In this document: one piece after another, positions 3,628-50,682 of the stretch
How positions within the stretch are numbered: position 1 is the stretch's first letter
How the letters are laid out: every line of letters begins with the position of its first letter
The notes under the pieces: generated by a model
What the model was told of the DNA's origin: nothing
The model's database searches: none
Seen by the model: the letters and a program-made list of their open reading frames with translations, nothing else
Made by a program: the position numbers and the translations under genes
Assembly (NCBI GenBank): GCA_001275005.1
Contig: JWZX01003134.1
Coordinates: forward strand, 1-50,808
DNA: 50,808 nt
Direction of reading: 5' to 3'
DNA from: Chrysochromulina tobinii
Taxonomy: Eukaryota

Positions 3628-4510
3628 CGGCTGGGAGCTTACTCGAAGATCAAAGCGCTCGGCGCCGGCTCCTTTGGCGACGTCTACTTGGTCAAGGAGG
3701 TGGCGACTGGCGCGCGTGCCGTGCTCAAGGAGGTCGAGCTCAAAGGCCTTGCCTCCAAGGACCTCAAGGCGGCGCACGATGAGGTCACGGTCCTGCAACG
3801 CATGAAGCACCATCACATCATCGGCTACCGTGACTCGTCCGTCCAGGGTTCGCTGCTTCTGATCGTCATGGATTTTGCCGATGGCGGCGATCTCGGAAAC
3901 CTCATCAGACAGCAGGAGGCGCGTGGTGAGCCGCTCGCCGAGGAGCGGGTGTGCAAGATCGTGGCGCAGGCTGTCGACGCGCTCGCCTACTGCCACCACA
4001 CCCTCCACCTGCTTCACCGCGATCTGAAACCCGACAATATCTTCCTCACCGCCGCGGGTGACGTCAAGGTCGGCGACTTTGGCGTCGCGAAGACCCTTCT
4101 TGCGACCAACGCGATGGCGAAGACCAAGTGCGGCACGCCTCTCTTCATGTCGCCTGAGCTCATGTCCGGGATGCCATACGATCGCAGTGCGGACGTATGG
4201 GCATTCGGGTGCGTGCTGTACAACGTCCTCACACTCGCCGCGCCCTGGATCGATCGCGTGAGCGAAAAGGGCGGCATGATGGCGCTCATGCGCCTCGTGT
4301 GTCACTCGGAGCTCGACCTGACCCCGGCGCGGGGCACTTACTCGGCGGAGTTGATCTCACTTCTGGAGCAGCTGCTGAGCAAGCGCGCGGCGGAGCGGCC
4401 CTCGTTCAAGGACGTGATGGGCTTGCCGTTCGTGCAGGCCAACCTCACCGGCTTCTCGCAGCTCCCACGCGAGCTCACACGCGAGCCCACACGTGCCACT
4501 GCCAGCCACA

Positions 4511-4541
<31 letters not shown>

Positions 4542-5404
4542 AGCAGCCGCAGCCGCAGCCGCAGCCGCAGCCGCAGCCGCAGTCGGCGCCGTTGAGTCAG
4601 CCACGGCCAGCGGCAGGGGTGCAGCAGCAGCAGCCGCAGCGGCCGCCGTCGGCGCCACGACCAGCGATGGCCCGTCCGCCCTCGCACCGGTTGGCAGCGG
4701 CACCGCCGCCGCCGAGCGCCAGCCATGCGCCGCGTCCGTCAATCGCCTCGGCAGCACGTGCGGCGGCCGCCGCTCATGCGGCCGCTGTGGCGCGCGCGGC
4801 GACGCCGCCGTCGCGGGAATCCATGGTAACGCCGCCGTTGCGGGCACCCATGCCAACGGCACATGGACCCTTGCCCACCATGGCGCGCGACCAGCCACCC
4901 AGCGCCCATGGACGACATGATGGACGACTCTCCAACGGCTTGAATGGCATCGGACAGCCCTTGAGTGCAGTCTCGGCCGTGGCGGCTGTTGTCGCCTCGA
5001 GACACGCTGCTGAGGTCGCCAGGAACGCTTCCGATGCAGCCCATCGGCAGTGGGAGGCAGAGGTGCAGCATGCGGCCGACGCAGCGTGGGAGGCAGCGGC
5101 GATCGCCCTGCAACGCTCCTTCCGCCAGCTTCGGCCCTTCTCGCCACGCTCTGTCATCGGAAATGGCCGAGCCGCCGCCGCGCCGACGAGCGCCGTTGTG
5201 GGCGTCCCCGTAGTGACTGCGCCCGTAGTGACTGCGCCCGTGGTGGCTGCGCCCGTGATGGGCGTCGACGTGCGAGGCTCGCGCTTGCCCCAGCAACGTG
5301 CACTCCCCCAAGCACCTCGGCTCCTCATCAATGAAGATCCGACGAGCCGCCCTTCCATCTTCTGCCGAGGCCGGGGAGCGCATATCGGCGTCTACATGTC
5401 GTGA
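3622..5404 (+). CDS. NIMA-related (NEK) Ser/Thr kinase with a Pro/Gln-rich tail; frame change near 4430-4540
   Basis: LGAGSFG, VLKE, HRDLKPDNIFL, GDFG, CGTPLFMSPE, DVWAFG; tail probably continues in ORF 4493-5404, which has the IQ-like AAIALQRSFRQ. Confidence 0.85.
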
Positions 5405-5837
5405 TGCGCGACGGAGGTGCACTGTCGATGTCTAGGATGAACCATGATGACCACTTCGGACTTGTGTGCCTTAGTTTGCCGGCTGTGTATCGCGGTGCCG
5501 TGTGTGGACAGTTAACGCCCGCGAGACGCGTCCCTCGGTCGTGTAGACGTCTGTACGGAAGAAACGGAAGAAAGTAACGGAGCGCTTTTGACCGCGGATG
5601 TTTAGGCGACCGTGCTGACACAGGCGTATTCATTACGTATTCATGAAAACACTTGTAGGACATCATCGATGACTCCGAACCGGACGACAATGCGCGCGAC
5701 ATCTCAGTGCTGGAAATGACAAATGTGGCATGAAATACTCCTCGTGAATCTTGCCCGCGCCCCGCGCGTCGCACAGGCACGAGCATGCACATGGCGTATG
5801 TAGCAAGGGGAACAGGGCGCGTGGTGCGTCCCGCGTC

Positions 5838-6443
5838 TTACGGCGGGGCGCCGAGGCCCTCCTGCCACTTCATCGAGTAGCAGCCGGGCTTGCCCTTGAG
5901 GCCCCACTTGGGCGACTTCTGAAGGTCGTCCATCTTGACCTTCTCCTTCTGCATCTGATCCCAGTTCACGTCGGGGCGGTTCGGCGACTTGTAGCCGCGC
6001 GACTCGCCCGGGAAGCAGCCGTTGGCGTCGGCCTTGGCGCCGTCGCCATTGCGCTCGAACGGGTTGAAGTTGTTGTAGTCGCGGGGCTTCTCTGGGTTCC
6101 ACTTGTCGAAGATGTCCTTCTGCGAGTCGAAGCCCCAGATGTTATTGAACTTCGAGATGTCGGCCATCATCTGCGGCTGCGGGCCAGTCATGCGGACCTG
6201 CACACAGATGGAGGGGAGCAGGGGAGCATCCGGTTCAGGTTTGCGCAAACAACACGTTGAGATCGGAAGCGCGCGCGCACGGTGCGGCGGCACTGTGAGC
6301 GCGAGGCGACGCTTGCAATCTGGACGGCACGAAGTGCCACTCGTTGGTGCGAGCGGGCGGGCCCGTACCTGCAAGGCGGGCGCGGCGACGCCGGCGGTGA
6401 AGCCCGACGAGAAGATAGCGGCACCAGAAGCGAGAGCGAGCAT
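5838..6443 (-). CDS. Small nucleus-encoded plastid-targeted protein of unknown function (exons 6443-6369, 6197-5838)
   Basis: Presequence MLALASGAAIFSSGFTAGVAAPALQ|VRM; 171-nt GT-AG intron 6368-6198; biased codon usage in exon 2. Confidence 0.7.
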   Translation of the reverse strand: MLALASGAAIFSSGFTAGVAAPALQVRARPLAPTSGTSCRPDCKRRLALTVPPHRARALPISTCCLRKPEPDAPLLPSICVQVRMTGPQPQMMADISKFNNIWGFDSQKDIFDKWNPEKPRDYNNFNPFERNGDGAKADANGCFPGESRGYKSPNRPDVNWDQMQKEKVKMDDLQKSPKWGLKGKPGCYSMKWQEGLGAPP

Positions 6444-6578
6444 TTTTTCGGAGATCTGCGGGGTTGAGGGCCGAATCTCATATCACAAAATCTCCCAAAA
6501 TGACGTGGCCGAATTGGTTTCCGAGTTAGGTTCTTTTCTTTTTTGAAAAGTTGGCGGAACACCTTTCGAGAAAACTAC

Positions 6579-9418: not shown

Positions 9419-10874
9419 TCAGTCGCTCGTCAGGAACTCGAGCATGGAGTCGAGGTCGTCGCCAAACTGGGCGTGGGCTTGGACGGCGCGTGGTAGGCTG
9501 AAGCCCATCGCGAGGAGGGTCTGCACCTCTTGGCTCAACGAGAGCTCGTCGGCGCTTCCCGTACTCCCCGCGCCGCCACAACCGCCGCCGCCGCCGCCGC
9601 CCCCAACCCCGCCGCCGCCGCCGCCACCGCTGCCGCCGTCGCCGCCGCCCACCTGTACAAACGGTGCGCCGGCGGCCGCGGCGGCCGCCGTCGCGGGCGC
9701 GCTCCGGGTGGGCGCCATGGCGGGCGCCCAGGGGCTGTAGACTGGTAGTGCGGGCGGCTTGGCGAAGTCATGCACGTCGAAGGGGCTGGGCGCGCTCGCT
9801 ACAGTGCTCACGGCATCAGCGTCCGACCCCGTATGCCCGCACGAGGCGGAGGGCTCGCTGGCGCCGCCGAAGGAGACACCGCTCGCGTCCCCGCTCGCGT
9901 CTCCGCCCCATGCGGCCTCTCCGGCCCATGAGCCGATACCTGTGGGGAGAGAGGGGAACAGGCGCCGTCGTGAGCACTTGCATGCAGGCCCAACAGCTTC
10001 TGGCCACTCCGGCCCATGCGACGATACCTGCGCCTGGCCAGCTGGCTGCAACTGCTCCACCAGCCCACCCGACGCCAGCCTCGGCGGCGCTCGCGGCGAG
10101 GGCGGCCTGGAGCAGCGCGTCCTGCGTCGCGTCCACGTCCGACGCGTCCCGCGCGGAGAGCAGAAGCTGTGACTCGATCGCGGACGTTTCGGACGCTTGC
10201 TGAGCTTGCTCCACCTGCATGCGATCCGCGAGCCCCGGGTGGAAGCCCGGGAGGCCGAGGCCGTCGCCCACGTCGGCTACGGTCGGGTCGACGATCACGT
10301 TGTAGTGCGACCGGCCGTGGTAGCTCAGCCGCAGCGGCGCGCCCGCCTCGCCCTCGGACGGCGCTGTGAACGTATTCATGGGCGCCTCCGTGTCGCCGCG
10401 CACGTCAAAGACGTGCACGGGCCGGTTGTAAATCTCCGAGATCGCCTGGATCTCGAGGTGGTTGCCGAACACGCGGTCGCGCCGCTTGCGCCGCAGGTAC
10501 GCGTCAAAGTCCTCGGTCACGTACTGCGAAAAGTGGTCACGCTCCTTCTCCATGTGATCGAGGCACAGCCGGCGCACGACGTCGTGCATCTCGGCGTCGC
10601 CGTACACGCGGTCCGAGACGGAGCGGAAGAGGCAGTTGCCATCATCGAGCATCCGGCGGATGTGCAGGCCGCGCGCGCGCAGACGCTCCTCGAAGCGCCG
10701 CTCCAGCTCCACGTACTCCGCCGCGGAGATGGGCTGCTGGTCGAGCTCATCGTCCGAGTTGACCGGCTCATAATTGTCTGCGCTTGGGCGCGGCGGTGCG
10801 CGCGCGGCGGAGGGCCGGGGCTCGTAGCTGATGTTCTGCGGCGTGTACTCGTCCAACGGGTCGATGCGCGTCAT
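9419..10874 (-). CDS. OTU-domain deubiquitinase (OTUD5-like) with UIM-like and C-terminal UBA domains (exons 10874-10028, 9939-9419)
   Basis: DDGNCLFRSVS catalytic Cys box, GNHLEIQA, LSYHGRSHYN His box; LLQAALAAS; LLAMGFS...AVQA UBA; an 88-nt phase-1 intron joins the two ORFs; start may lie further upstream. Confidence 0.9.
9940..10027 (-). other. Spliceosomal intron with a 26-nt duplication of the downstream exon and the TGCATGCAAGTGCTCAC acceptor module
   Basis: CAG|GTATCGTCGCATGGGCCGGAGTGGCC...CCCCACAG|GTATCGGCTCATGGGCCGGAGAGGCC. Confidence 0.85.
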
Positions 10875-11246
10875 GAGGGCGGCTGAAGCGCGCACACACG
10901 GTTCCGACCCTATTCCTGCCAGAGCGAGCGCTTCGCAAAATGCAACGCCGAGACGACGCCTGCTCGAACGAAGCCGCATGCAAGGGGGGAGGGGGGAAGG
11001 GGGGGTGCGGGATTGGTAGCCGGGCTGCCCAGGAGCGTGTTGAAGTCATTCTGATGCACACGCTTCCCGGCCGCGGCCCTTCCCTGCGTTCCTCGGTCTT
11101 GAAGTCCTTCATTGCAGCCTTATTGCGGTCGTGGACGTGTATGGTCGCACACGGTCCATCTCCATGAAGAAAGGGGAAGTCTCAGCCCGCGGTCCCGTTG
11201 CGTTCGCATGTAGATCTCTCGAACGCGTCTCGTATGCATCTACCGC

Positions 11247-12420
11247 TCACAGCCGTGGTTTCATCAGGCGCCACTTCAGGCGGAGGGCGAGGCGCGGCGT
11301 GTCCCTGATGCGACAAGACATTCGCTGCGCTGCGAACTGCATCGTGCATGCGCGTGCTTTATCAAGGGCCCTGGCAGTTGCACGGGGTTTTCGCCCCGGC
11401 GTCTGCAGCGCCTTCATCACGCGGTTGTAGTGCACGTCCATGTTGTGCCCGCATGCTCGCGCGCGGCTTCCTCCACGCGCTGTCGGTGTCGGCGAGCGCG
11501 GCGTCGTCCACGGCCACGCTGAGGTTCTTGGCCATCAAGAGCTGGAGCCCGAGCGTATAGGCCTGCCCGCCGTCGAGCTGCGACGGGTAGGTCCTGTGCA
11601 TGTCGAGATCACAGGTGATGCAGTGAGTGCGTGCGCGATCAAGGGAGGCACTCAGGTGGCAAGCAGGGCAGCGCACAGGGTGGGGGCGATCGTGACGAGG
11701 GCGCCCGCGCCGACGAGGTGGGCGGCGAGCGCCTCGACTCCGGGACGGAGAGCGCCGACGGCGCCGCCTACATAGTAGCGGTCGCCGGCGTCCTCATCGA
11801 GTAGCAGACGCAGGGGGACGACCAGATCCGCAACCATGTGGTTGGCTGCGGCCTGCTGCTTGGACAGAGGGCGCTCCTCCTTCCAGTCAAGGACGCGTGC
11901 ACGTAGCCGGGGGTTTTTTCGGCTTGTTCATTGAGTGTCTGCTCTTTGGGACGGTCCGCGTCTCTTGCCCGCCACGTCCCCGAGGGCGCTCCTCCTTCCA
12001 GTCAAGGACGCGTGCACGTAGCCGTTGCTGCTTGAGTGCCTCCGTATCGGGGCGGAAGTGGCCAGCTGTAGAATCGCGGAGGCGGACCTCGCCGCGAGCC
12101 CGCGCCGACGAGGTGGGCGGCGAGCGCCTCGACTCCGGGACGGAGAGCGCCGTTCACCGCCGTCCAAAGACCGCTCGGCACGAGCACGACCTCGTCGTCA
12201 TCCGGCTTGAGACCCTCGCGCAGCGCGTGCTCGTAGTGAGCGTGCGCCGTCAGGATCTGGTTCGCCTCGGCCTCGGGCGGCGGGCGGGCAGTCTGCCTGC
12301 CGTCCACGCCGTACGACCTGTCGAAGCGCGAGGATCGATCCGGGCCTGTCGCAAACCTGTCGCACACCCAAGCCACAAGTGGCCTCCACCAGCACGAGGT
12401 AAGCAGCCACGGCCACATGG
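11247..12420 (-). pseudogene. Fragmented, internally duplicated coding-like sequence of unknown origin
   Basis: Protein-like fragments in shifting frames; exact duplications 11703-11757=12098-12152 and 11867-11909=11982-12024. Confidence 0.4.
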
Positions 12421-16612: not shown

Positions 16613-18236
16613 TCGAGCGCACCCGGGACTCCGAAGTCCGGGACGTCATGCTCGCCGTGCTCCTCGCGAAAGCGGAAGAGGTCATTCGCAAGCAAGATCC
16701 GAAGCTCGTTCTTGCCCAGGTCTTCGTCCTCAAACGCGAAGGCGCTCTTGACGCGCGCGGCCTCCTCCTCGGAGGCCATCGCCGTCACGCACGGCGCCTC
16801 GACCGCCGGCAGCGCGCCAAAGTAGGCAAAGCCGAGCGCCGCCGCGGCGCTCGGCCGTTTGGCGGGATCAATCTCGAGTAACGCCTTGAGGAGAGCGATC
16901 TCGTCCGGCGAGGCGCTGGGGCATGCGTCGCGCAGCTTGGCATCGACCTCCAGGCTGCGCTCCTCGTCGCCGAGGCTCGAGAGCGCCTCCTTGGCGCACA
17001 CATTCCGCACCTCCTCCACCGCCTCTGCGGAGTATCCTGCGAGCTCCGCGGAGGTCGGATCTCCCAGGATGCGCGCGATGACTGCGAGCTGATCGTATCG
17101 CTGGCGCTCGCGCTGCTCGTCGTCGAAAGAGAAGGGGATGCAGTAACGGCCAGGGAAGAGGGCGCCCGTACCTGACGTCGACACGCGAGCAAGTTTGCCT
17201 GATGAGAGAGGCACTCAGATGCCATCGGAGGCCATCAGAGGTCATCAGAGGTCATCAGAGGTCATCAGAGGTCATCAGAGGTCATCAGAGGTCATCAGAG
17301 GTCATCAGAGGTCATCAGAGGCACCCAGAGGCACTCAGATGCCATTAGTGGAGATCAGAGACCCAATCCGGGATGCCGGGGCGACCGGGGTAAGATTCGC
17401 GTACGCAGGTGCGACTGAGGAGTGAGCTCGAGCAGCTCCTTGAAGATGCACCCGACGGCCCACATGTCAATCGCTGCGCCGTACTTTTGACGTAGGATCA
17501 CCTCGGGCGCGCGGTACCATCGCGTGACGACGTAGAAGGTCATCTGAGCCCTGAGCGGCGGTGGCTTCGCCTTGAGCGGCGGTGGTTCGGCCGCCGCATC
17601 GCCACCGCCGCTCACCCCCTCGGCGGCATCCTCCATCGCGTTGTCCACCTGCGTGGAGGTCTCCTCGAGGCGCTTGGCGTACCGCGGGTTCGAGTCGACG
17701 CGCGCCAGCCCGAAGTCGCACAGACGCACGACGCCAAAGGGTGTGGCGGGCGTCACCTTGCCCGTCGAGACCAGGATGTTGGCCGGCTTCAGGTCGCGGT
17801 GGATGCCCGATATGGCGTGGACGTGCGTGAGGCCCGCGCACAGCTGCGCCATGAACGAGCGCACCTTGTTCACCTCGAGCGACTGCTTGGACTTGATGAT
17901 CCTGCGCATGTCGGACTCCATAAACTCGGTGATCATGAAGATGTCGTCGAAGGTCTCTATGTTGGCGGGCATGGCCAGCCCTCGCAGAGAGATCACATTT
18001 GGATGATGAAAGTCGCGCAGAAGCCGGATCTCGCGCAGCACCTTCTTGGCTTCCTGAGCGTCGTAGAAGACCTCCGAGATGCGCTTGATGGCGACCGTCT
18101 CGCCAGTCGCCGTCTCGACCGCACGCGCCACGACCGAGTACGCGCCACTGCCGATGAGCTTGACATTCGTGTAGTCCTTTTGCACCGCCCGATCCGCGCC
18201 TGACCAGAAGGCCTTCAGCTCTGCCTCCGAAGCCAT
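16603..18236 (-). CDS. Mitogen-activated protein kinase (exons 18236-17405, 17171-16603)
   Basis: IGSGAYSVV, VAIKRI, LREIRLL, HRDLKPANIL, CDFGLAR, TFYVVTRWYRAPE, LFPG, DQL; a 233-nt phase-1 intron joins the frames. Confidence 0.92.
17172..17404 (-). other. Intron containing a 10-bp (CTCTGATGAC)n array
   Basis: C|GTACGC...GTCAG|GTACGG; 8 exact GTCATCAGAG units on the plus strand (17241-17320) plus degenerate flanking units. Confidence 0.85.
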
Positions 18237-25935: not shown

Positions 25936-27837
25936 ATGAGCGCCGTCGACCCATACACCATCTTCGACAGCGTGGTGCCGCCAACAAGCGAGCCGGTCGC
26001 GGGCAACGACCCTTTCGACTGCTTTGGCGCGCCGGCGGAGCATCAACCGGCCAAGCGGCCATGCAGCTCGCCATCGCCAGTGCTCCCGTTGATTCGCCGC
26101 TTTGTGGCTGCACACGTTGGCGATGCGATCGCAGACTTGAGAGCGGCGAGCTCGTCTGCCGCTGCTACGCTCGCGTCCCATCTGAGTGATGCAGCGGACC
26201 ACTTGGCAGCCGTACCGGCCCAATTTTCCGGCTGCCGGTCCGCTGCGGAGAGCGTGGCTGACGCGGCGTGGTCCACGCTCACACAAGATGGCGCGTGGCC
26301 TCACGCTTCGTGGCGAGAGGCGTACGTGCTCGCGCAGCTCGCACTGGCCGCCGTGTGCTCGGCATGTGACAATGACACGGATGCCGCCCTGCGCTGCCTC
26401 GATAGGGCCTTCATCCTCGGTGGGCCCACGCAAGTGTTCCGCGACTGCGTCGAGATCCTTGACGAGCCAAAGCCGCAGAGAGCACGGCGATCAACGGGTC
26501 CACTGCCGACGGCCGACATCAACGAGGACGCGCCTGCTGCAGAGCCGTGGAGGAGGCGTCTGGAGGAGGTGCGACGTGCCCGTGACGGCGCGCCGTCTCG
26601 GGCGAGGCTTGCTGTTCGAGCCGTTGAGCGACAACCCTGCCCTCCGACGGCGCAAGCGTTCCGCGCGGCGCGGCGTGGCGGCGCTCCGCTTCTCTTCGAG
26701 GGCGTCGCCGACGGCTGGCCCGCACTTGAACAGTGGCAGGACTTTGGCTGGCTGCGCGACCAATACGGCGCGCGGCTCGTACCGGTAGAGCTGGGGAGCC
26801 TCGCGAACGCGGCGGGCGCCGTCGTGGGCGCGACCGCCGTGGGCGCGGTGGGCGCCGTCGTGGGCGCGACGGGCGCCGCCGCGGGCGCGACGGACGCCGC
26901 CGTGGCCACCGCCGCTGCGACGGATGGCGCCTCGATGGGCGGTGCGACGAGTGGCGGTGCGACACAGCCTGGCGCCCACCATGGCGCGTGGAGGGAGAAG
27001 TTGATGCCGCTGGCCGACTTTGTAGACACGTTCTTGATGGCTTCGGAGCCCGGCACGGAAGGCCACGCCGCGGCCGGTAAGGCGACAGCTGAGGCGGCCG
27101 GTGAAGCCGCCGAGGACGCGCAGGCGCGACACCCTCACGCCGTGTCGAGCGCCCGCGCCGTCGTGGGCTACCTCGCACAACACAATCTCTTTGAGCAGAT
27201 CCCGCGGCTGCGTCGCGACTTTGCGATCCCGGCGCTGCTCGCGGGCGGCGTGCAGCACATGCACGCGTGGCTTGGCCCTGAGGGCACAGTGACGCCTCTT
27301 CACTTCGACTCGTACGACAACGTGCTCGTGCAGGTCGTCGGCCACAAGCTCGTGTATCTCGAACGGGCCTCGAACCTAATCTGGACACCTCGCCTTGCAT
27401 GCAAGTGCTCACCACAGCGCCCTGCAAAAGCCACGTGCCTCGAACCAAATCTGGACACCTCGCCGTGCATGCGAGTGCTCATCACGGCGCCCGCTCCTCT
27501 TCCCCACAGGTCCCTCTTCGACTCGGGTCAGACGCCGCGCCTCTATCCCAAAGAGGGCGGCGGCACCGGCGTCGATGCCCAAGGCAACGTGAGTCCTCTG
27601 ATTACCTCTGATTACCTCTGATTACATCTGAGTACCTCTGATTACCTCATGCTCATCTTTGGTCAGGTGAGTGCGGTCGACGTCGAGGCGCCCGATATGG
27701 GTCGCTTCCCCGAGTTCGCGCACGCCGTCGGGTACGAATGCGTCCTCGGTCCGGGGGAGGGCCTCTACATCCCGGCGGGCTGCTGGCATCACGTGCGAAG
27801 CCTCAGCCCGTCGTGGTCCATCTCCTTTTGGTTCTGA
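25936..27837 (+). CDS. JmjC-domain hydroxylase, JMJD5/KDM8-like (exons 25936-27353, 27510-27588, 27667-27837)
   Basis: [74 protein letters not shown]. Confidence 0.92.
27354..27509 (+). other. Stop-free 156-nt intron with two tandem ~70-nt units carrying the TGCATGCAAGTGCTCAC module
   Basis: GT|GTATCTC...CCCCACAG|GTCCCTC; removal restores HKLVSLF; units start at 27367 and 27437. Confidence 0.8.
27589..27666 (+). other. 78-nt intron with a (CTCTGATTAC)n array
   Basis: AAC|GTGAGTcc...GTCAG|GTGAGTgc; ~5 ten-mer units; removal restores GNVSAVDVE. Confidence 0.9.
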
Positions 27838-33110: not shown

Positions 33111-33735
33111 GCCGAGAGCGGTCGGTGTACGCGCGTCGCGTAGAAGGGGACGATTTAGTACCGTTGCGTTGGTTTGCGTCGGTCCGGGTATGCATGCGCG
33201 AATCCCGGCGCCGGCTAGGCGCCGGCCACAGAGTGACGCGCGCAACCGGCAGAACTGCATCCCGCACAACGGAGCGACAACGGGACACGGACGGGAGCCG
33301 AGCATCGTTCCCCAGCGTAGTACCTTGCATTCATATCAAATATGTATCACCCTCTAACACCCCCGCCATGTCCGCCAGTCCGCCACTTCTACCATCCCCG
33401 CCGCCGCCCGCACCGCCGCCACCCTTGCCGCCTCGACCGCCAACGCCACCTCCGCCGATGCCGTCGCCGCCTAGTTCTGCTTCTCCACCGCCCCCGACGC
33501 CACCACCGTCCTCTCCACCGCCTCCCGTGCAGCCACCGCCACCGTCGCCTTTACCACCGCCTACCGTGCCTCCGCCTCCAACATCCATACGTTTTGCGTC
33601 CCTTATACTGTTGTATCCGATATATCTTTTGGAGGTATATCTAGTTCGGACTCGACTCATTTCAAACATTTACACGGTACACGGTATCCATGACGGTATC
33701 ATCATCTTCTTCATGCGATGTGCTCGCTCGTATGC

Positions 33736-36700
33736 TTATCGGCTGGCTGTGAAACGCCATGGGGGCCCGGCCTCGGGGATCGAGGCTGGATGACGCCATG
33801 GGGGCCCGGCCTCGGGGATGGAGGCTGGATGACGCCATGGGGGCCCGGCCTCGGGGATGGAGGCTGGCTGACGCCATGGGGGCCTGGCCTCGGGGATCGA
33901 GGCTGGTTGACGCCATGGGGGCCCGGCCTCGGGGATCGAGGCTGGCTGACGCCATGGGGGCCTGGCCTCGGGGATGGAGGCTGGATGACGCCATGGGGGC
34001 CCGGCCTCGGGGATCGAGGCTGGCTGACGCCATGGGGGCCCGGCCTCGGGGATCGAGGCTGGCTGACGCCATGGGGGCCCGGCCTCGGGGATCGAGGCTG
34101 TAATGTGGAAGTCTGCGGTTGATCTCCATGTAGGCTCCTCAAAATCAGTGTTCCCGTTCTCAACCACCGCCTTCTCAGCCGCCGCCTTCTCGGTCACCTG
34201 CACGGCCGCCAACTTCTCGGCCGCATCCTTCTTGGCCGCCGCAGCTTTCTCCGTCGCCGCCTTCGCCTTGGCCGCCTGCGCCTCGGCTGCCGCCTTTGCC
34301 TCAACCGCCGCCTTCTCGGCCACAACTTGCCATGCCTTCGCCGCCTTCACGGCTGCAGCCGCCTTGCTCGCTAGGCGTGTGCGCTGCTGCTCTTGTTCAC
34401 GCGTCTGGGCGCGCTTGGCAGGTGGCGCAGCGACGGGCGCCGAAGCGTCAGGCGCCGTCACGGGCGCTCTTTGTTCAGCGACGGGCGCTGCGGCGACGGG
34501 CGCTGCGGTGACTGGCGCTGCGGCGACGGGCGCTGCGGCTACGGGCGCTGGGGCGACGGGCGATGGGGCGACGGGCGCTGGGGCGACCTCCGCGGCCTCC
34601 TTGTCTGCCTTCTCCTTGGCTTCTGCGGCCTCCTTCTCGGCCTTCTTCGCCGCCTCGGCTGCCTCCTTCTCCGCCTTCTTCGCGGCCTTAGTGTCGATCG
34701 CGGCAGCCGTGGGTGGCTGCAGCTGCTGATCTCGATTCGGCTGGTGTGGCTCGTTCACAGCGCGCTCGACCAGTGCATCGTTAGCGGGCGCTGCCGCGAC
34801 GGGCGCTGCCGCAACGGGCGCTGCCGCGACGGGCGCTGCCGCGACGGGCGGCATCCTCGTAGACGTTGCACCGTCATCCGCAGCCCTTTGATCGAGTTCG
34901 CCATTCGCGAGACGCTTGAAGATGGTGTTGGGCTCGGAGCAACTCGCGCTTCGGGGCATGCGAAGGTTGGCCGCCTGCCCCGAGGCAGGATGGTTGTGGA
35001 GGTCGGTCGAGTTCCATGCAAACTCCGGCTGCGTGTGAGATGGTTCGTCGTCTTCGCACCGGCACGTCATTGCCGACACGTCCCTCGCCGCCGCCCTGAC
35101 GAGTCGCTTCTGGTCAGACTGACGGAGGACCGTCGCGCTCCGTGCAAGCTCCGTCTTGTTCGTCACGATCAGCTCATCGTCCCCCGGGTTCGTCAGAATG
35201 GGCCCATCGCCATCGCACGGACAGGTCGGTGATGTCGGTGAGAGGCCGGAGCTCGCCAGCATGATTGTCGTACCCGCACCCCCCATCGGCTCGATTCTCA
35301 GGCCAACGGGCCTCAGAGCGTCGCCGAGGCACTTGTCGGCAGCGCTGGCACCTGCCCAGCAGCTCTCGATGGCCAGCTGTCCGTCTGTGTAAGTATTAGA
35401 GACGGTCGCGAACGAGGTGGGGGGGCGCGGGAGGCTGCAGTCAAACTCGGTGCCGGCAGGACTGTACTGACGGAACGAGGCGAATTGCCTGTCCGCCTCG
35501 TTTCGCAAGAGTGACATCATGGCGACCTTGGGGTTCTTTGCGATGGACCGAAGTGCATCCTCCCATGCCACCATCGTCGCCTCATTACGTGCGAGCATGC
35601 ACTTTGTCGGCGGCCTTTCCTTCACGAGCTGCCCGGCCGTATTGGCGTTGACAAACTGCGGGAAGAAGTTGAGCGTGATCGTGCAGTTCGCGGGGGGGCA
35701 GACGTCCTTGGGCACTCCTTCACACACAAGATCGCGCACGCGGACGAAGTAGTCGGCGAAGTCGTACTTGAGACCCAAGTACAGCGAGGATGCATCGCCA
35801 GTGAGGTTCGTAGGTCGCATGCCCGGCTTCTTCGAGCTACTGAGCGCCAAGATCTTCTGGTTGAGTACTGGGTTGCTCCTCCTCCGAAGCGTACCGGTGC
35901 CGGAGTCGAAGATCGCATCCGCAAAGGACGACATGTTGCACCCGGTGACGTGTTCGGTCGTCGACCACACCATGCTCGTGTACGAGAAGGGCTCGCCGAG
36001 GTCGAACACGCACGGGTGGGTATTGAGCGCATGCCCAAACTCCGTCGCGCCACTTTCGTGGTCAGAGATGATGACGAGCACCTGTGCGAAAGACGAGCCA
36101 GCCTTCTCGGCCGCCGCCTCCTCGGCCGCCTCCTTCGCCGCCTCCTCCTTGGCCGCCGCCTTCTCCTTGGCCGCCTTCTCCGCCGCCTCCTTCTCCGCCG
36201 CCTCCTTCTCCGCCGCCTCCTTCTCCGCCGCCGCCTTCTCCGCCGCCGCCTTCTCCGCCGCCGCCTTCTCCGCCGCCGCCTTCTCCGCCGCCTCCTTCTC
36301 CGCCGCCGCCTCTGCCTCAGCATAGGCCTTCGCAGCCGCAGCCTCCGCCGCGGCCGCCGCCTCCTCGGCAGCCGCCTCCGCCTCAGACGCGGCCTCCTCG
36401 GCCGCCGCCTCCTTGGCCGCAGCCTTCTCAGCCTCGATTGCCAGCTCACACGCCATGTGGCACTCGGTTAGCATGAAGTCTGGGTTGGCCTCACACTCCC
36501 CCGCCGCAGCCCATTGGGGGCAGTCAGCGGGCTCGGGCGCGAGAATCGCGGCGAGCGTCGCCTTCTCCGCCGCCGCATTCTCTTCGTATGCCTGCTGGGC
36601 CGCGGCGTTTTGCGCGGCCACTCTCGTGGCTACGTCCGAACGCTCGCACGTGACCTTACACTGTGTCCTCGCGCACCACTGGGAGAGGCACTCCAGCGCG

Positions 36701-38130
36701 CATTCGCCCTGCAATGCTCGATGGGCGCAGTTCGGCGGCTCGTCAGCGGGGACGAGGAACTCGGTGAGAGCGGCCCTCTGGGCGATCCCGATTTCGAAGG
36801 CCGCCTTCTCGGCCGCCGCCCTCTCGGCGTACTCCTTCTGGGCCGCGGCGTTCATCTCGGCATCTGCCTTCTCGAGCGCCGTCTTTCTCGCGGCCGCCGC
36901 TTGCTCCGCCTCTGCCTTTCTAGCTGCCGCCGCTCGCTCCGCCTCTGCTTTCCTTGCCATTGCGGCTTGTTCGGCCGCTTCCTTTCTAACGGCCGCCGCC
37001 TTCTGATAGGCCGCCTCCTTGGCAGCCGCCTTCTCGGCCGCCGCCTTCTCCGCCAGCGCCTTCTGGAATTCCGCCTCGACGGCCGCCGCCATGCCGGCCG
37101 CTGCCTCCTCCGCTGCTGCCTTCTCCATCGCTGCCTTCTCCGCCGCCGCAGCCGCATTCTCCTCCGCCGCCGCCTCGATCGCCGCCTGCTCCGCCAACGC
37201 CCTCTGGAACGCCGCCTCGACGGCCGCTGCCTGCTCGGCCGCTGCCTTCTCCGCTGCTGCCTTCTCTGCCGTCGCCTTTTCCGCTGCCGCCTTCTCGGCC
37301 GCCGCCTTCTCGGCCAGCGCCTTCTGGAACTCCGCCTCGACGGCCGCTGCCTGCTCGGCCGCCGCCTTCTCGGCCGCACTCGCCGTCGCCGCCTTCTCGG
37401 CAACCGCCATCTGGAACGTCACCGCCGCCTTTTCTCTTGCCGCCTTCTCGGCCGCCGCCTTCTCGGCCACCGCCTTCTCTGCCGCTGCCTTCTCGGCCAC
37501 CGTCTTCTCGGCCGTCGCCTTCTCGGCCACCGCCTGCTCGGCCGCCGCCTTCTCGGCGACCGCCTTCTCTTTATTCGCTGCCTCCCTCTCGGCTGCATGA
37601 TCCTTGATCCATGACTTCCAGCAAGCAGCCTGGCACTCCTTGCGCATCAGGGCCGACTTGGCGGCCGAATTTGTGCTCGAGGCGATGCACTCGCCCGCAT
37701 CTGCCCGCGCGTCGCACCCTTCAGGGTCTGCTAACTCCCAACTGGCAGACTCCGGGGGATCCACGGGCCTTTTGATCTCGGTCCTTGACTCGGTCATGGC
37801 CGGCGCGGTCGGCTGGGTCGTGGTCGGCGTAGCAACCGTGGCCGGTGTATTGAGGTACCACGGTGTTCTGCCATCTTTTCTGCGGACTGCCGTCCCCGAG
37901 GCTGGTATGGTCAGCGAGGCTGGCTGGGCCTTCTCTGCCGCCGCCTTCTCCGCCGCTCGCTCCGCCGCCGCTCGCTCCGCTTCCGCCTTCTCCGCCGCCG
38001 CTCGCTCCGCCGTGACATGAGGCGTGGCGATCTCTGTGAGCGCTTGAAATGCAGCATTTGGGGGAAGCGCATGCGCGACGAGGGCGAGCGCTAGACATAT
38101 GGCAAGACGGCAGAGGTAGCCGTGGCCCAT
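33736..38130 (-). CDS. Giant secreted protein: EKAAA helical repeats, three ShK-like domains, sulfotransferase-like domain, C-terminal 13-aa repeats
   Basis: Signal peptide; [25 protein letters not shown] and two related motifs; [29 protein letters not shown]; (EKAAA)n; (APVAA)n. Confidence 0.8.
33754..34100. repeat. 39-bp minisatellite, 9 copies
   Basis: ACGCCATGGGGGCCYGGCCTCGGGGATSGAGGCTGGHTG. Confidence 0.95.
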
Positions 38131-38372: not shown

Positions 38373-39872
38373 ATGCGATTCTTCTCACTGTGCATCATCG
38401 CAGCGGCGCGTACCGCTCTTGTGAGCGCGGTTGCGCCGCGTAAGCGCATGTTGATGATGGTGGGCGGAGATCTCGACGATTACAACCGCGAGATCTTCGA
38501 GTTGATCATCTCGAACGCCGGTGGATCCAACAGCACTCTCTGCGTCATTGCAACCAATGGCGAAGATCCATGCTGCGACCCCGACAGCAGTTGGGTGTTC
38601 TACCAGCAGTTGTTCACCGGTTACGGTGCGACCGACGTCAAGTACATCAACATCGATGTGAACAACAGCTTTCCAAGGTCCCACACGGGGAACGCGTATG
38701 ACCCTGCGATCATCGAGCAGATCAAATCGTGCGACGGGTTTTGGTTTGGCGGCGGCGACCAGACGCGCATCATGAAAGCCTGGTACGACAACAACGTGAC
38801 GGGCAAGCTGAACACGCGAACGCCGACACCGGCGATGACGGCACTGCTTGAGCGCTTCGAGGAGCATGGCGGCGTGCTGGCGGGCTCGTCCGCCGGCACT
38901 GACTGCCACAATGCGAAGGTCATGGTCACCGACGGTGACTCCTACTCCGGACTCGTGAAGGATACTGTCGCATACAACTACAGTGAAGGTGCGGTCGACC
39001 TGGACGACGGTACAGTGACCTTCGACCCGAATGGAGCGCTTGGCACGTTCTCGTATGGGCTCCTTGACACCCACTTTGGCGAGCGCGGTCGTCAGGGCCG
39101 GATGATTCGGCTTCTGATGGACACGCTGCACCTGCCGAATGGGTATCCGATTGGGTTTGGCGTCGACCAGAACACAGTGATCATCGTGGACAAGGATGAC
39201 CCTTCGCACGCCATTGTCCGAGGCCAGGCCGGCGTCACCATCTGTAACGCGTCGACCCTGATTGCACCTGATTGCACCTGATTGCACCTGATTGCACTTG
39301 ATTGCACCTGATTGCACCTGATTGCATGAGCAGGTAACGTGGAGGACGCGTCGACGACGCAGTGGGCGGGCGCTTGGTCCGTGACCAACGTGCGCTGCAA
39401 CTACGCCACGCCGGGCGATACCGTGCACATGACCACAGGCACCATCTCCTTCGGTGCGGACAAGACGGCTCTCAAAGGACGGGAGACTGCCGAGCAGCCC
39501 TACACTTCACGCGACGTCTTCAACTCGCCGAAGAACCCCTCGACCACGGGCAGCACGCACGAGTTCGTGCTTCAGGCCACGTCGCTGTTCAACTCGACAG
39601 CCACGACATCGACCGGACTGACCTTTGAGACGGAGCCCAAGACGTTCGCCGTGCGCATGACGAAGGATGACAGGTCCGTGGCCTATCAGGGAATGCACAA
39701 CTTCAATGGCACTCTACAAAGCTACACCTCCTACATGGACTTGGTGGTAGACATCTTCGCCCTCGACACCAAAGAGGCACTCAGCATGGCGTTCATGGGT
39801 GGAGTAACGGCTGAGCGCGCGCAGATCAAAGGGACGATAGCCGCCGCCCGTGCGCCACGCGAAGATAAGTAA
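38373..39872 (+). CDS. Secreted cyanophycinase-like serine peptidase, S51 (exons 38373-39243, 39334-39872)
   Basis: Signal peptide; LMMVGG, GFWFGGGDQTR, AGSSAG nucleophile, LDTHFGERGRQGR, GFGVDQNT. Confidence 0.88.
39244..39333 (+). other. 90-nt intron with a (CTGATTGCAC)n array
   Basis: T|GTAACGCGTCGAC...GCAG|GTAACGTGGAGGACGCGTCGAC; 7 ten-mer units. Confidence 0.9.
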
Positions 39873-42278: not shown

Positions 42279-45200
42279 TCAGGCCCTGCCAGTGCCGCGC
42301 GCGGTCACCACGCCTCGCGGCACCGGAGCACCACCCAACGGTCGGCCCTGGTGCTCTGTGGAAGGGCGGGCGGTTAGGGCTCCCCGGCGGTTCTCGCCGG
42401 CGGCCGGTGAGGGGGCACCACGGGTGAGGGGTCGACCCGAGCCTGCCTTTGGCGTCTTCGGCGTCTTCGGCTTTGCGGCTGGTGGCGGCGGCATCGCCGG
42501 CAGTGTGAGCGGCGGCGCCGCCGCGGCAGGTGCAGGTGCTTGGGTTTTGATCTCTGCATCGATGTCGACGCTCGTCCGTCGCTGCTTCTCAGTGCGCTGC
42601 TGCTCCTTACGCTGCTGCTCCCTCAACTTCTCTCGAGGCGAGATGTACCGTTCGGGCGGCGGCAGGCCCAACTCCTTGGCACGATCCTTGAGGACCTTGA
42701 ACTCGCGAACCTTGACACTCTCACGTGCCGACACGTGGTTGACGAACTCCTCCTCATAGGCCGCATTCTCGGCCGCGAACGCCTCACCGGCCGCTGCCTT
42801 GAGCCCCGCTGGCAGCGGGCCAGCCGCCTTTGCGAGAGAGCGCAGCCAGGCCATCTGCAGCGTACCGACCTCGACCTCACGTGTGGCCAAAAGGAGTTCT
42901 ATCGCCTCGTGTGGCCGTCCAACGACCGCGTGGGCCGCGGCGATCGCATCTCTCTCGAGGAGCTCTGGAGTGAGCGCTTCCTCCGGGCGGTACATGGTCG
43001 ACGGACTGGGCGAGCGATCGCGCACCGGGCTGTCCCGGGCGCCTCTCGGGGGCGTGCTGTCCCGGGCGCCTCTCGGGAGTGGCTCGTCGTGCGCCCACCG
43101 GCCCAAGCGAACGCTGTCACGGGGGTCGTGCGGATTCTTGGGTAGCACTCCCTGCTTTCGCATGGGCGCGTCCAGAGACAGGCGCAGGTTGTGCACCTGG
43201 ACGGACGAGTGGATCGCATCCAATAAGAATGGTCATCAGTGGTCATCAGTGGTCATCAGTGGTCATAAGCAGTCATCAGAAGTCATCAGCAGTCATCAGC
43301 ACTCATCAGCACTCATCAGCAGCCATCAGTGCACCTGGCTCTTCTCGACCGCCTCCATCAACTGCGGTGCCAAAATAAAGGCCAACTCGGTCGCAGGAGC
43401 TCCCCCATTTTCTCTTTCGAGCGTCTGTGCGATGGCATCGAGCGCTTCTTCGGTGGCGTGGCACAGATACGCGGAGTACGCCGCTCGGGCTTCGGAATAA
43501 GGCACGGTGCCACGGACATCCTCCTCGTCGTCCTTCTTCCCCTTCCCCTTCTTGCCGCCTTTGGGTCTTCCCCGTAGGCCTTTGGGGCTGCCCTTTGGGT
43601 CTTCGAAGACCTTTGGATCTTCGTCTCGGCTGGGTCTTCGTAGGCCCTTGGGGCTGCTGTCGGGACTGGCGGCCGCGTGAGTCCATGAGTGATTCGAATC
43701 GTCTTCGGAGCCCATCAGAGCTCGAAGTCCTTTGGGCAGCTCCTTGAAGGGCACTTCCTCGTCGACCCAGAAGGCATCCCCGAGGGTGAAACGCGTCGCC
43801 TCGGCCGCCTCCGCCTCCGCCTCCGCCGCCGCCGCCTTCGACGCCATTCGCGCCGGTCTGAGTGTCACCGAGACTTCAGTCGACATTGGAACTAGGGACG
43901 GCGGGGAGGGCCTTCCTAGTATGGGAACCGCCCCGGTGCCTATATTAGGCAAGAACGTTTCGGACGAATCGCCGACCACGCTGACCTTTTCGCCCTCCTT
44001 GTCCTCGATGGGCGTCGCTGTGGGAACCTCAAACGGCAGCAGCACTTGTCGCGTCTTGGCAAGGGCCCTCGCCCGCGTGCTGAGCTTGTCGCGCGTCGTC
44101 TCGGCGACGCGCTCGAGGACCGCCGGAAGCATGCAAGCAGACGCGCTGTGTGTGAGCGAGGCGATCGCGTTCTTTGCGAGCAACTCGACGCGCTCGCACC
44201 GGCGACGCACGCGCTGCAGCCCTACCTGATGAGGGAGGCAATCAAGAGGTCATCATCAGTGGTCATCAATGGTCATCAATGGTCATCAATGACTGCAGCC
44301 CTACCTCCGCCTCCGACAGCTGCTTGCTCGTCTCCTCGACCTTGAGATCGTATGCGACGCGCGCCTCGTAGTTGCTGTCGCGCGCGAGCGCGGCCTCGTC
44401 GTAGACGGCGTTGAGCCGGCGGGTAGACTCGTCCTTGCGAGCGTGCTTCTGGGCCTCGACCTCCTCCATCGTCGCGCGCGCCTCCATCTGCTCCTCCCAG
44501 TACTCGAGGATCCCCTTGACGTGATCGCACATGGTCAGCTCCTCGAGCTCGCCCCACGCCGCTCGCAGGTTTTTATGGCGGCGCCCCTCCCTCGTCGCGA
44601 CCGCAGTCATCTGTGCGACCACGCCGCTCGTCGCGGCGCGCTTCTCGGCTGCTTTGCGCTGCTCCCAAAACCTGTCAGCCCCACGCTTGGCGGACTCCTG
44701 CTGCGCCTCCGCCAACTCCCTCTGCTGACGCTTCTGCTCGCCTGCCGCCTGGTCCCTCAAGAAACGTAACCGCTCCCTCGAGACCCCGCCGCCGAGCGAG
44801 CTGTTGCTCGCGCCACTCTCTCCGGCGGCAGCCTGGAGATCGTGCATCACCTTCTTACGGCGCGCCTCCCTCTTCTCCTCCGCCGCCACCTGCTCCTCCT
44901 GCAGGCGCTCCAGCGAGCGCTCCGAATGCTCCTGCATCGCCACAGCGACGTCCATGCCTTCCTCCAACACATCCAGCCGGACGGTGAGCTCGATGAGCGC
45001 AGATCGCAGATAGGCGAGCTTCTGGTTGAGGTGCGGGCGGCGTGTCTCGAGCCGCTCGGCCATCATCTCGTACACGAGCGCGTCCGTCTCCGCCTGTGCG
45101 GCCTTATGCGCAGCCTCTTTCCACTCAGACTCCAGCTCGGCAGCTACCCTTGCCAGCTTGCCGCCGTCAGCGTCCTCACGCGCGCGTGCGTCCGTCTTCG

Positions 45201-49743: not shown

Positions 49744-50682
49744 TCAAAACTTATTCTTCGCACCACCACCATCCTTCTGATCCTCCGATCCCTTGGCCTT
49801 TCCAGCTATGTACACCGGCGTGCCCTCGATGATGGCGGCGGCCGCGCGGTGGACGACCGAGTATAGGGAGATGGTGAGGCTCGAAAGCGGGGCGAGCAGC
49901 ATCACGCGCGGCAGCAGCCCCCGCGCGAAGCCGCTGATGCCCTCCTTAGCCACAATCGATCTCGCAACTGCAAGCACACCGGCCTCGCTGGCCACGTCGG
50001 TCACTTGCATCGCGGCCAGTCCAGCACCGCCAACCTGCAGGCGAGTCTTGACGACGTCAAAGGGGTTGGTGAGCGCGCTCGCGCCCATGCCCGCGAGCAG
50101 CCCGCAGCCTAGCGCCGTCACGAACAGCGGTTGCTCTCCGGACGGTACTCCGCATAGCTGCACCGTGAGGAAGTCATACGCAAGGAAGTAGAGGGAGAAG
50201 TAGGGTGCCCAGGTGAGCGCGCCCGCGCCGAGGCCGCGGTAGAGCCCGGAGGGGCCATCCACGCGCAGCAGGTCGCGCAGCACGGACAACGAGCTCGCGC
50301 CTCGCGTGACCATCGCACGTTGCTTGACCACCTCCATCGGCGTGTAGATCAGGAGCGATGCGAGGCAACCCGCAATGCCCGCGAGAGTCGATGCGAGGCC
50401 AGACGACATGTGCGGCGCTGCAGCTGCACGCGCAGCCTCGTACGCGACGTAGAAAAGCCCGTTGCCCGGCAGGCTCGCGGTGAGATGCGCGCCCAAGCCC
50501 TTGTACAGCGCAGGCGCACCCTCGGCACGGAGGAGCGCCAGGCTCTCACGCATGAGGCCGCGTGCTGCCGGGCGCACCATTGCACGTGCGCGCATCGTGT
50601 CTAGCGGGTAGAGGCACACGTCGGCAGCCGCGCCCGCGACGGCCCCGCAGAGGAAGTTGGCCGTTGCGCCGAGGTCTCCCAT
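49744..50682 (-). CDS. Mitochondrial carrier family (SLC25) protein
   Basis: Three Px(D/E)xx(K/R)xR signatures: YPLDTMRAR, TPMEVVKQR, NPFDVVKTR. Confidence 0.93.
   Translation of the reverse strand: MGDLGATANFLCGAVAGAAADVCLYPLDTMRARAMVRPAARGLMRESLALLRAEGAPALYKGLGAHLTASLPGNGLFYVAYEAARAAAAPHMSSGLASTLAGIAGCLASLLIYTPMEVVKQRAMVTRGASSLSVLRDLLRVDGPSGLYRGLGAGALTWAPYFSLYFLAYDFLTVQLCGVPSGEQPLFVTALGCGLLAGMGASALTNPFDVVKTRLQVGGAGLAAMQVTDVASEAGVLAVARSIVAKEGISGFARGLLPRVMLLAPLSSLTISLYSVVHRAAAAIIEGTPVYIAGKAKGSEDQKDGGGAKNKF

Follow-up and report, generated by a model that had tools for sequence, protein, structure and literature searches.

How new spliceosomal introns originate is a long-standing question, and introners are their best-documented source. 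According to one model, tandem duplication of an exon segment that contains AG/GT provides a splice site, and splicing leaves the mRNA as it was before. The published introner cases, in the parts of the literature available to us, have short and fixed duplications of 2 to 8 bp, as is typical of DNA transposons; the values given are 4 nt (GHNN) and, in other taxa, 4 to 8 bp, and many of the elements have terminal inverted repeats. The closest described systems, each as presented in the accessible portion of its source, are the following. (i) In the introners of Symbiodinium and Polarella, the acceptor lies in the element, the donor is derived from the duplication, and the duplications are 4 nt long (bioRxiv 10.1101/2020.10.14.339549). 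(ii) Introner family 5 of the Chrysochromulina sp. TARA MAG has a 4-bp duplication, carries its own 5' site, and co-opts the 3' site (bioRxiv 10.1101/2022.06.06.494994). (iii) In a 2025 survey, about 5% of the classified introners were ascribed to non-LTR elements (PMC12130899); in the tables of that survey that were searched, the haptophyte families belong to Emiliania huxleyi and Pavlovales sp. alone, and Chrysochromulina tobinii is credited with 0 families. In a literature search on haptophyte introners and on the introns of Chrysochromulina parva, we found no description of the module family reported below, and a 16-nt stretch of its core had no match in the literature searched. The DNA analyzed here, referred to as the window, is a stretch of 50,808 nt from C. 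tobinii (contig JWZX01003134.1).

An 88-nt intron in an OTU gene

The segment from 9940 to 10027 of the window is a spliced intron. It interrupts a gene for an OTU cysteine protease on the minus strand, and its parts and surroundings, in the direction of transcription, are as follows.

10028..11045, minus strand: upstream exon and ORF with the OTU cysteine-protease domain (Pfam PF02338, ORF list)
10028..10030, minus strand: CAG at the exon end, which matches the module-terminal CAG and extends the repeat to 29 nt
9940..10027, minus strand: 88-nt GT..AG spliceosomal intron of the OTU gene (sequence; RNA joints in X18 and X19; loose end at the junction in X20)
10002..10027, minus strand: intron nt 1-26, a copy of the downstream exon start, 23/26 identical to 9914-9939; supplies the GT donor (GTATCG...)
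9987..10001, minus strand: 15-nt spacer, intron nt 27-41; its last 4 nt, GGCC, fit the GCCY that precedes the core in the family
9961..9986, minus strand: 26-nt family core TGCATGCAAGTGCTCACGACGGCGCC, which includes CTCAC
9940..9960, minus strand: pyrimidine-rich tail and CCCCACAG acceptor
9419..9939, minus strand: downstream exon to the stop codon, with the C-terminal motif LLAMGFSLPRAVQAHAQFGDDLDS that is kept in relatives
9914..9939, minus strand: downstream exon nt 1-26, the other copy of the duplication; encodes (G)IGSWAGEA

On the minus strand the order is thus ...GGCCAGGCGCAG / GTATCGTCGCATGGGCCGGAGTGGCC-AGAAGCTGTTGGGCC-TGCATGCAAGTGCTCACGACGGCGCC-TGTTCCCCTCTCTCCCCACAG / GTATCGGCTCATGGGCCGGAGAGGCC..., where slashes mark the splice sites. 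The preliminary description of this locus, made from the sequence alone, had divided the intron into 26 nt of exon copy, 15 nt of spacer, and a 47-nt module, and this partition is exact: the module comprises intron nt 42-88 (9986-9940) and terminates in CCCCACAG. The duplication of 26 nt with 23 identical positions that it had reported was likewise recovered when counted from the GT; with the preceding CAG, the repeat search returned a direct repeat of 29 nt (9914-9942 versus 10002-10030) with 90% identity (26/29) and an offset of 88 nt. The CAG at 10028..10030 may be microhomology or a part of the duplication, and the remaining 11 of the 15 spacer nt are unexplained filler. The exon region is itself repetitive, with WAG motifs and a third copy of the repeat (66% identity) at 9896-9924. 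None of 40 second-order-Markov random windows (0/40) contained a GT..AG interval of 40 to 400 nt with a prefix-match score of ≥17. The repeat search of the window detected no inverted repeat at the ends of the intron, the folding of the intron RNA was no better than that of shuffled sequences (z = 0.54), and the only Rfam match was a sub-threshold miRNA hit outside the intron. The CTCAC in the core, which we take to fit the yUnAy branch consensus, could be the branch site; its distance would be about 50 nt to the donor and about 29 nt to the acceptor.

Both the RNA and the DNA evidence at this intron consist of assembled contigs. Two RNA contigs, of 324 nt (X18) and 332 nt (X19), skip exactly these 88 nt, the shorter side being 143 nt in each; the joint was placed at 9933 to 10022 and acquires plus-strand ends CT..AC after a shift of 6 places that the repeat allows. 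An RNA contig of X20 reads up to 9942 and then into the 21 nt beyond 10030, which is the same junction with a 21-nt side. In DNA run X1, possibly the window's own source, a contig covering 9655-10164 is continuous across the site, with no joint. Unspliced sequences were also present in RNA libraries, as a contig from 9753 to 10919 in X17 and a piece from 9954 to 10051 in X20; these correspond to retention, pre-mRNA, or carried-over DNA, which the contigs do not separate. Retention in the mRNA, a possibility raised in the preliminary description, is therefore answered in part: the 88 nt are spliced out in X18, X19, and X20, and unspliced contigs occur in X17 and X20. The X17 contig has six clustered differences from the window at 10179-10237 and none elsewhere across 9753-10919; another allele or strain in the culture is a possible source of these.

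The upstream frame (9816..11045, minus strand) contains the OTU domain (PF02338, E = 5.6e-18, 66.1 bits versus a Pfam cut-off of 23.3). Removal of the 88 nt joins this frame to the C-terminal frame via ...WPGAG/IGSWAGEAAW..., and if they are kept, the frame shifts and reaches a stop at 9816, so that the C-terminal motif, conserved in P0003-P0005, is lost. The frame ending at 9419 closes with LLAMGFSLPRAVQAHAQFGDDLDSMLEFLTSD, and its motif is kept in these more distant relatives; no Pfam domain was found at E ≤ 0.01 in the C-terminal exon (9419..9939), which may resemble a UBA domain. Two closer relatives cover the junction. P0001 is a gene model of 455 amino acids under the source name Chrysochromulina, is 98% identical over the C-terminal exon, and contains the spliced junction WPGAG/IGAWAGEAAW. 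P0002 is continuous through the junction and lacks the intron; its contig could be DNA or cDNA. Since both have a single copy of GIG[A/P]WAG[E/V]AAW, there is no coding tandem repeat in these relatives, an arrangement that the preliminary description had considered.

A dispersed family with the same module

We searched for the family with the degenerate 26-nt core pattern TGCATGCNAGTGCTCANNACNGCGCC, which matched at least 129 stretches of metagenome contigs originating from mixed-culture assemblies and lake metagenomes. The 129 listed stretches and two window loci make up 131 sequences, which correspond to at least 113 nonredundant loci. The loci were chosen by the exact full core, with truncated cores outside the counts; when 5'-truncated cores were sought within these full-core-selected loci, mainly the unrelated motif GCGCCCACGACGGCGCC surfaced. 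Viral contigs contained no match to the core pattern. The contig depth in X1 rose from about 73 in the flanks to 3669-6577 over the module, in agreement with a repeat of high copy number. Several pairs of loci that are 91 to 97% identical share the intron, and some insertions are therefore older than the split of the lineages.

From the 113 representative loci among the matches listed, we took 128 core instances. A flank-repeat score of ≥14 was obtained for 88 of these 128, versus 26 of 156 pseudo-cores shifted by 230 nt. For the listed loci, the instances were classified as follows.

Type A, GT donor (duplication starts at GT, second copy after AG): 56/128 instances
Type A, GC donor: 6/128 instances
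Reverse type, or type B (AG at the end of the duplication, then GT or GC): 7/128 instances
Flank repeat without GY..AG at the ends: 28/128 instances
No ungapped repeat of ≥12 nt: 31/128 instances

Many of the 59 instances in the last two classes are tandem arrays or, as judged by eye, type A introns bearing indels. An exon-start duplication at GT or GC was thus present in 62 of the 128 listed core instances, which upholds the earlier proposal that the donor half is derived from the exon.

A number of features characterize the type A introns (n = 62 among the matches listed). (i) The median length of the duplication, counted from the donor onward, is 26 nt, with a range of 11 to 106 nt, the value of 106 being a tandem; mean identity is 95.8%, and 22 of the 62 are perfect. 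Perfect copies span 15 to 44 nt, and the length of the duplication was therefore variable from the outset. (ii) Intron length has a median of 78 nt and a range of 63 to 152 nt, with a distribution modulo 3 of 23/21/18. (iii) The donor-to-core segment has a median length of 34 nt (interquartile range, 29 to 42), and in most of these introns 0 to 32 nt of filler lie between the duplicate and the core. (iv) Upstream of the core only four positions (GCCY) are conserved; downstream there is a pyrimidine tract of variable length, the tail being pyrimidine-rich in the sense of the gene, and the terminus is CCACAG in 52 of the 62. (v) The exon preceding the donor ends in AG in 31/62 cases versus a background of 10.8% (P = 1.5e-14); in the other 31 it does not, and the acceptor AG therefore comes from the module. 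(vi) In a frame test based on third-position GC, 10 of 12 informative loci favored splicing (P = 5e-4); this test was confined to lengths not divisible by 3, and weak periodicity removed 41 of the 62 introns and short flanks another 4.

Other members depart from this arrangement. Among the matches listed, 13 of the 128 instances keep 12 to 29 nt of an upstream 5' module, GTACGTTGATTGCCACTGATGACCTGCCT, which has a donor of its own and is retained partially or completely, to differing extents. At no fewer than four loci inspected by eye (L041/L046, L081, L119, and L120), the 5' module and the core are present without the pyrimidine tail, and the AG is provided by the duplicated end of the upstream exon. 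In L079, both ends of the element are present, with no clear duplication. Tandems of two to three units, each made of an exon-derived duplicate and the core, occur at L027, L052, L054, L102, and L115 and at 27389-27509 of the window. In L027 the unit lacks an acceptor tail, and its length of 48 nt is divisible by 3, so that it might be translated as coding sequence.

Within the window, the 26-nt core was found at two loci only, the OTU intron and an intron 17 kb farther along, of which the second was detected by a 17-mer search and blastn-short; mismatch-only searches of the window with the module tail returned the OTU intron alone.

27354-27509, plus strand: 156-nt intron with the same module, ending in CCCCACAG; cores at 27396-27421 and 27466-27491

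The two cores of this intron sit in a 70-nt internal tandem. No duplication of the downstream exon was found at its donor, where an equal or better score was reached by 324 of 1000 shuffles. RNA splicing checks cover these two window introns, i.e., the OTU intron in X18, X19, and X20 and the 27-kb intron in X15, where the joint from 27353 to 27510 is single and weak and has a side of only 24 nt.

The OTU intron is a typical, median member of the family and not an extreme one, with a duplication of 26 nt and a total length of 88 nt. The preliminary description had singled out its exon duplication as the longest; beyond the window this does not hold, as perfect copies elsewhere reach 44 nt, and its 26 nt equal the family median. 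Its core is the minority variant CACGACGG, also present in L025, L026, L108, L112, and L113. The identity of its duplication (26/29) is the 7th lowest among the 62 type A introns listed, and the intron is therefore comparatively old. The proposal that the three mismatches indicate age survives in this weakened form. Read in frame, the intron copy is GIVAWAGVA and the exon copy is GIGSWAGEA, and the same stretch is GIGAWAGEA in P0001 and GIGPWAGVA in P0002. Two of the three mismatches are thus at codons that vary among relatives (S/A/P and E/V), and there the intron copy has the states of the relatives, which suggests, from the sequences compared, that the exon copy changed after the duplication. 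The mismatch count is therefore a rough clock at best.

The window contains further repeats, which we record as separate observations. Two GT..AG intervals begin with a copy of the sequence that follows them.

44226-44304, minus strand: 79-nt GT..AG interval; the first 12 nt, GTAGGGCTGCAG, have a perfect downstream copy
50069-50212, plus strand: 144-nt GT..AG interval; begins with a 17-nt near-copy (16/17) of the following sequence

The first of these has 10-nt tandem repeats in its interior and the terminus TGATTGCCTCCCTCATCAG, and acceptor-side tails like its own are found just upstream of the cores in L085 and L100; the interval is possibly a member of another intron family that makes duplications and is related to the 5' module. 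Tandem repeats with a 10-nt unit (e.g., TCATCAGAGG and CCTGATTGCA) form arrays at 17187-17386, 27597-27646, 39247-39336, 43208-43337, and 44243-44296. RNA joints skip 17167-17399 (233 nt; X15, X17, and X18) and 27589-27666 (78 nt; X18), and at least two of the arrays are therefore located inside spliced introns. The contig depth of about 800 to 1150 in the bin 16963-17613 is due to the 10-mers being so common. A perfect 55-nt direct repeat is present at 11703-11757 and 12098-12152, 395 nt apart; the minus strand of both copies encodes ALRPGVEALAAHLVGAG, and the enclosed segment has a repeated unit of about 44 nt. A GC..AG interval at 11733-12127 (minus strand) is compatible with this repeat, and RNA contig depth is 0 over 11755-12405. 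The motif GCGCCCAC(G/C)ACGGCGCC coincides with the core over its last 12 nt and has no acceptor after it; it is found at 26815-26862 of the window, within GC-rich 36-nt repeats, and at several loci (e.g., L017, L027, and L035). Long arrays at 33667-34139 and 36013-37571 have periods of 39 and 15 nt and a strong strand asymmetry, and they look like repetitive coding sequence; in the interval from 36 to 38 kb, GC skew is -0.23 and AT skew is -0.44.

Origin of the intron

The repeat, the splicing, the restored frame, and the occurrence of the module at over 100 unrelated loci, with this architecture as the most frequent one, are direct observations. We consider it likely, with a probability of roughly 0.72, that the intron was created when a mobile half-intron module of about 50 to 60 nt inserted into the OTU exon and duplicated about 26 to 29 nt of it. 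The upstream duplicate of the target would supply the GT donor, and the module would bring the 26-nt core with the branch-site-like CTCAC, the pyrimidine tract, and the CACAG acceptor; splicing would then restore the original mRNA exactly. The duplication would presumably arise at insertion, through the fill-in of staggered breaks, and an insertion would survive in an exon only if its duplicate opens with a GT or GC that can serve as donor, at a sufficient distance from the branch site. If the duplications are indeed made at insertion, the enzyme is not of the usual fixed-stagger kind. Against insertion stand the 11 unexplained spacer nt, the 27-kb copy without a donor duplication, and, for the listed loci, the 28/128 instances without GY..AG ends and the 31/128 without an ungapped repeat.

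As the most likely manner of transfer, we tentatively put forward, still at less than even odds, a SINE-like retroposition in which an intron-like RNA (about 80 nt) is reverse transcribed at a nick and truncated at the 5' end. This route is suggested by the long and variable duplications (15 to 44 nt), the constant 3' end, and the graded retention of the 5' module, and it is opposed by the copies that lack the tail and have a donor of their own, which would be unexpected under plain 5' truncation. Neither an A-rich tail, nor a reverse transcriptase partner, nor inverted terminal repeats were found for the module in the window sequence. It is possible, if somewhat doubtful, that the family constitutes a new class of introner, in which a half-intron is retroposed into staggered nicks in the genes of a freshwater haptophyte and the duplication gives the donor; the usual 5' truncation would in that case leave the branch site, the pyrimidine tract, and the acceptor, with a duplication of 15 to 45 nt.

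The main rival to the insertion of a module dispenses with a dedicated element and invokes break repair or template switching during replication, in which a broken or stalled exon would have copied the 3' half of another intron as filler and re-copied 15 to 45 nt of its own sequence, the module recurring as an abundant or invasion-prone sequence. Several of the features described above are in keeping with such a process, namely, the variable length of the duplication, the filler between duplicate and core (0 to 32 nt in most of the introns listed), the AG/CAG microhomology at the 3' junction (31/62 versus 10.8% background for the listed loci), and the tandem duplicate-plus-core arrays at five loci and in the 27-kb intron. 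The published account of Daphnia neointrons, in the part available to us, describes exon-derived direct repeats that are ascribed to staggered breaks, but these are 4 to 12 bp long (PMC4202315). A defined element fits better with the same core at 113 or more loci, its sharp 5' edge (GCCY), and its constant CACAG end, and we regard break repair without a dedicated element as unlikely.

Plain tandem duplication of an exon segment containing AGGT, whereby the intron would be a second copy of the adjacent coding sequence, agrees with a repeat that begins CAG/GT and has a period equal to the intron length, in an exon region that is itself repetitive; the likeness to the exon is nevertheless limited to the first 26 of 88 nt, and this explanation is excluded, to within a very small residual probability, since the match to the dispersed module covers 47 of the 88 nt. 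That the 88 nt are no functional intron at all, and rather a retained coding insertion or an artefact of repeat assembly, is highly improbable: the unspliced contigs in X17 and X20 and the collapse of many contigs at the repeat core could be read in this way, but spliced contigs were obtained from two to three RNA runs, the DNA contig from 9655 to 10164 spans the site, and retention would shift the frame to the stop at 9816 and remove the conserved C-terminal motif.

Comparison with known systems

Under the insertion of a module, what enters the exon hardly amounts to the 3' half of an intron, and the 5' third of the resulting intron repeats a long stretch of exon that differs from locus to locus. 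The family offers a natural series of dated intron gains, with the identity of the duplication as the clock, in a host alga that is present in cultures and lakes. It also constitutes a warning for gene finders, as intron starts in this genome can resemble coding sequence.

The described systems share some of these traits and differ in others; the statements on individual published families refer to what the accessible parts of the respective sources report. (i) Under the tandem-duplication model the whole intron is a copy of the exon, whereas in the OTU intron only 26/88 nt are. (ii) Daphnia neointrons also have exon-derived direct repeats, of 4 to 12 bp; the OTU family differs in consisting of one recurrent module and in having repeats that are two to four times longer (PMC4202315). 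(iii) MITE-type introners have terminal inverted repeats and a fixed short duplication, neither of which is a trait of the OTU family. (iv) Duplications of variable length are a trait of SINE-like elements and also of the OTU family. (v) For introners derived from non-LTR elements, variable duplications and a common 3' end are the outcome of target-primed reverse transcription (PMC12130899), and the OTU family is alike in its variable duplications; as to the 3' end, 52 of the 62 type A introns listed terminate in CCACAG, and copies that lack the tail also occur. It is unlike them in that no A-rich tail, LINE-like 3' end, or parent bearing a reverse transcriptase was found for it. (vi) Family 5 of the Chrysochromulina sp. 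TARA MAG shares with the OTU family the genus name, a haptophyte host, short introners without inverted repeats, and one splice site derived from the duplication; the OTU family has mainly the reverse arrangement and much longer duplications, as compared by description. (vii) The introners of Symbiodinium and Polarella are, like the OTU family, present in many copies in the introns of unrelated genes, with the acceptor in the element, a GY donor from the duplication, and a restored mRNA; the OTU family is unlike them in its variable duplications of 15 to 44 nt, the lack of inverted repeats, and an element of only about 50 to 60 nt. Taken together, three marks of introners, i.e., near-identical copies in unrelated genes, ends at splice sites, and a locus-specific duplication, are all present in the OTU intron family, which is best read as abundant and introner-like, with a long and variable target duplication as its unusual trait.
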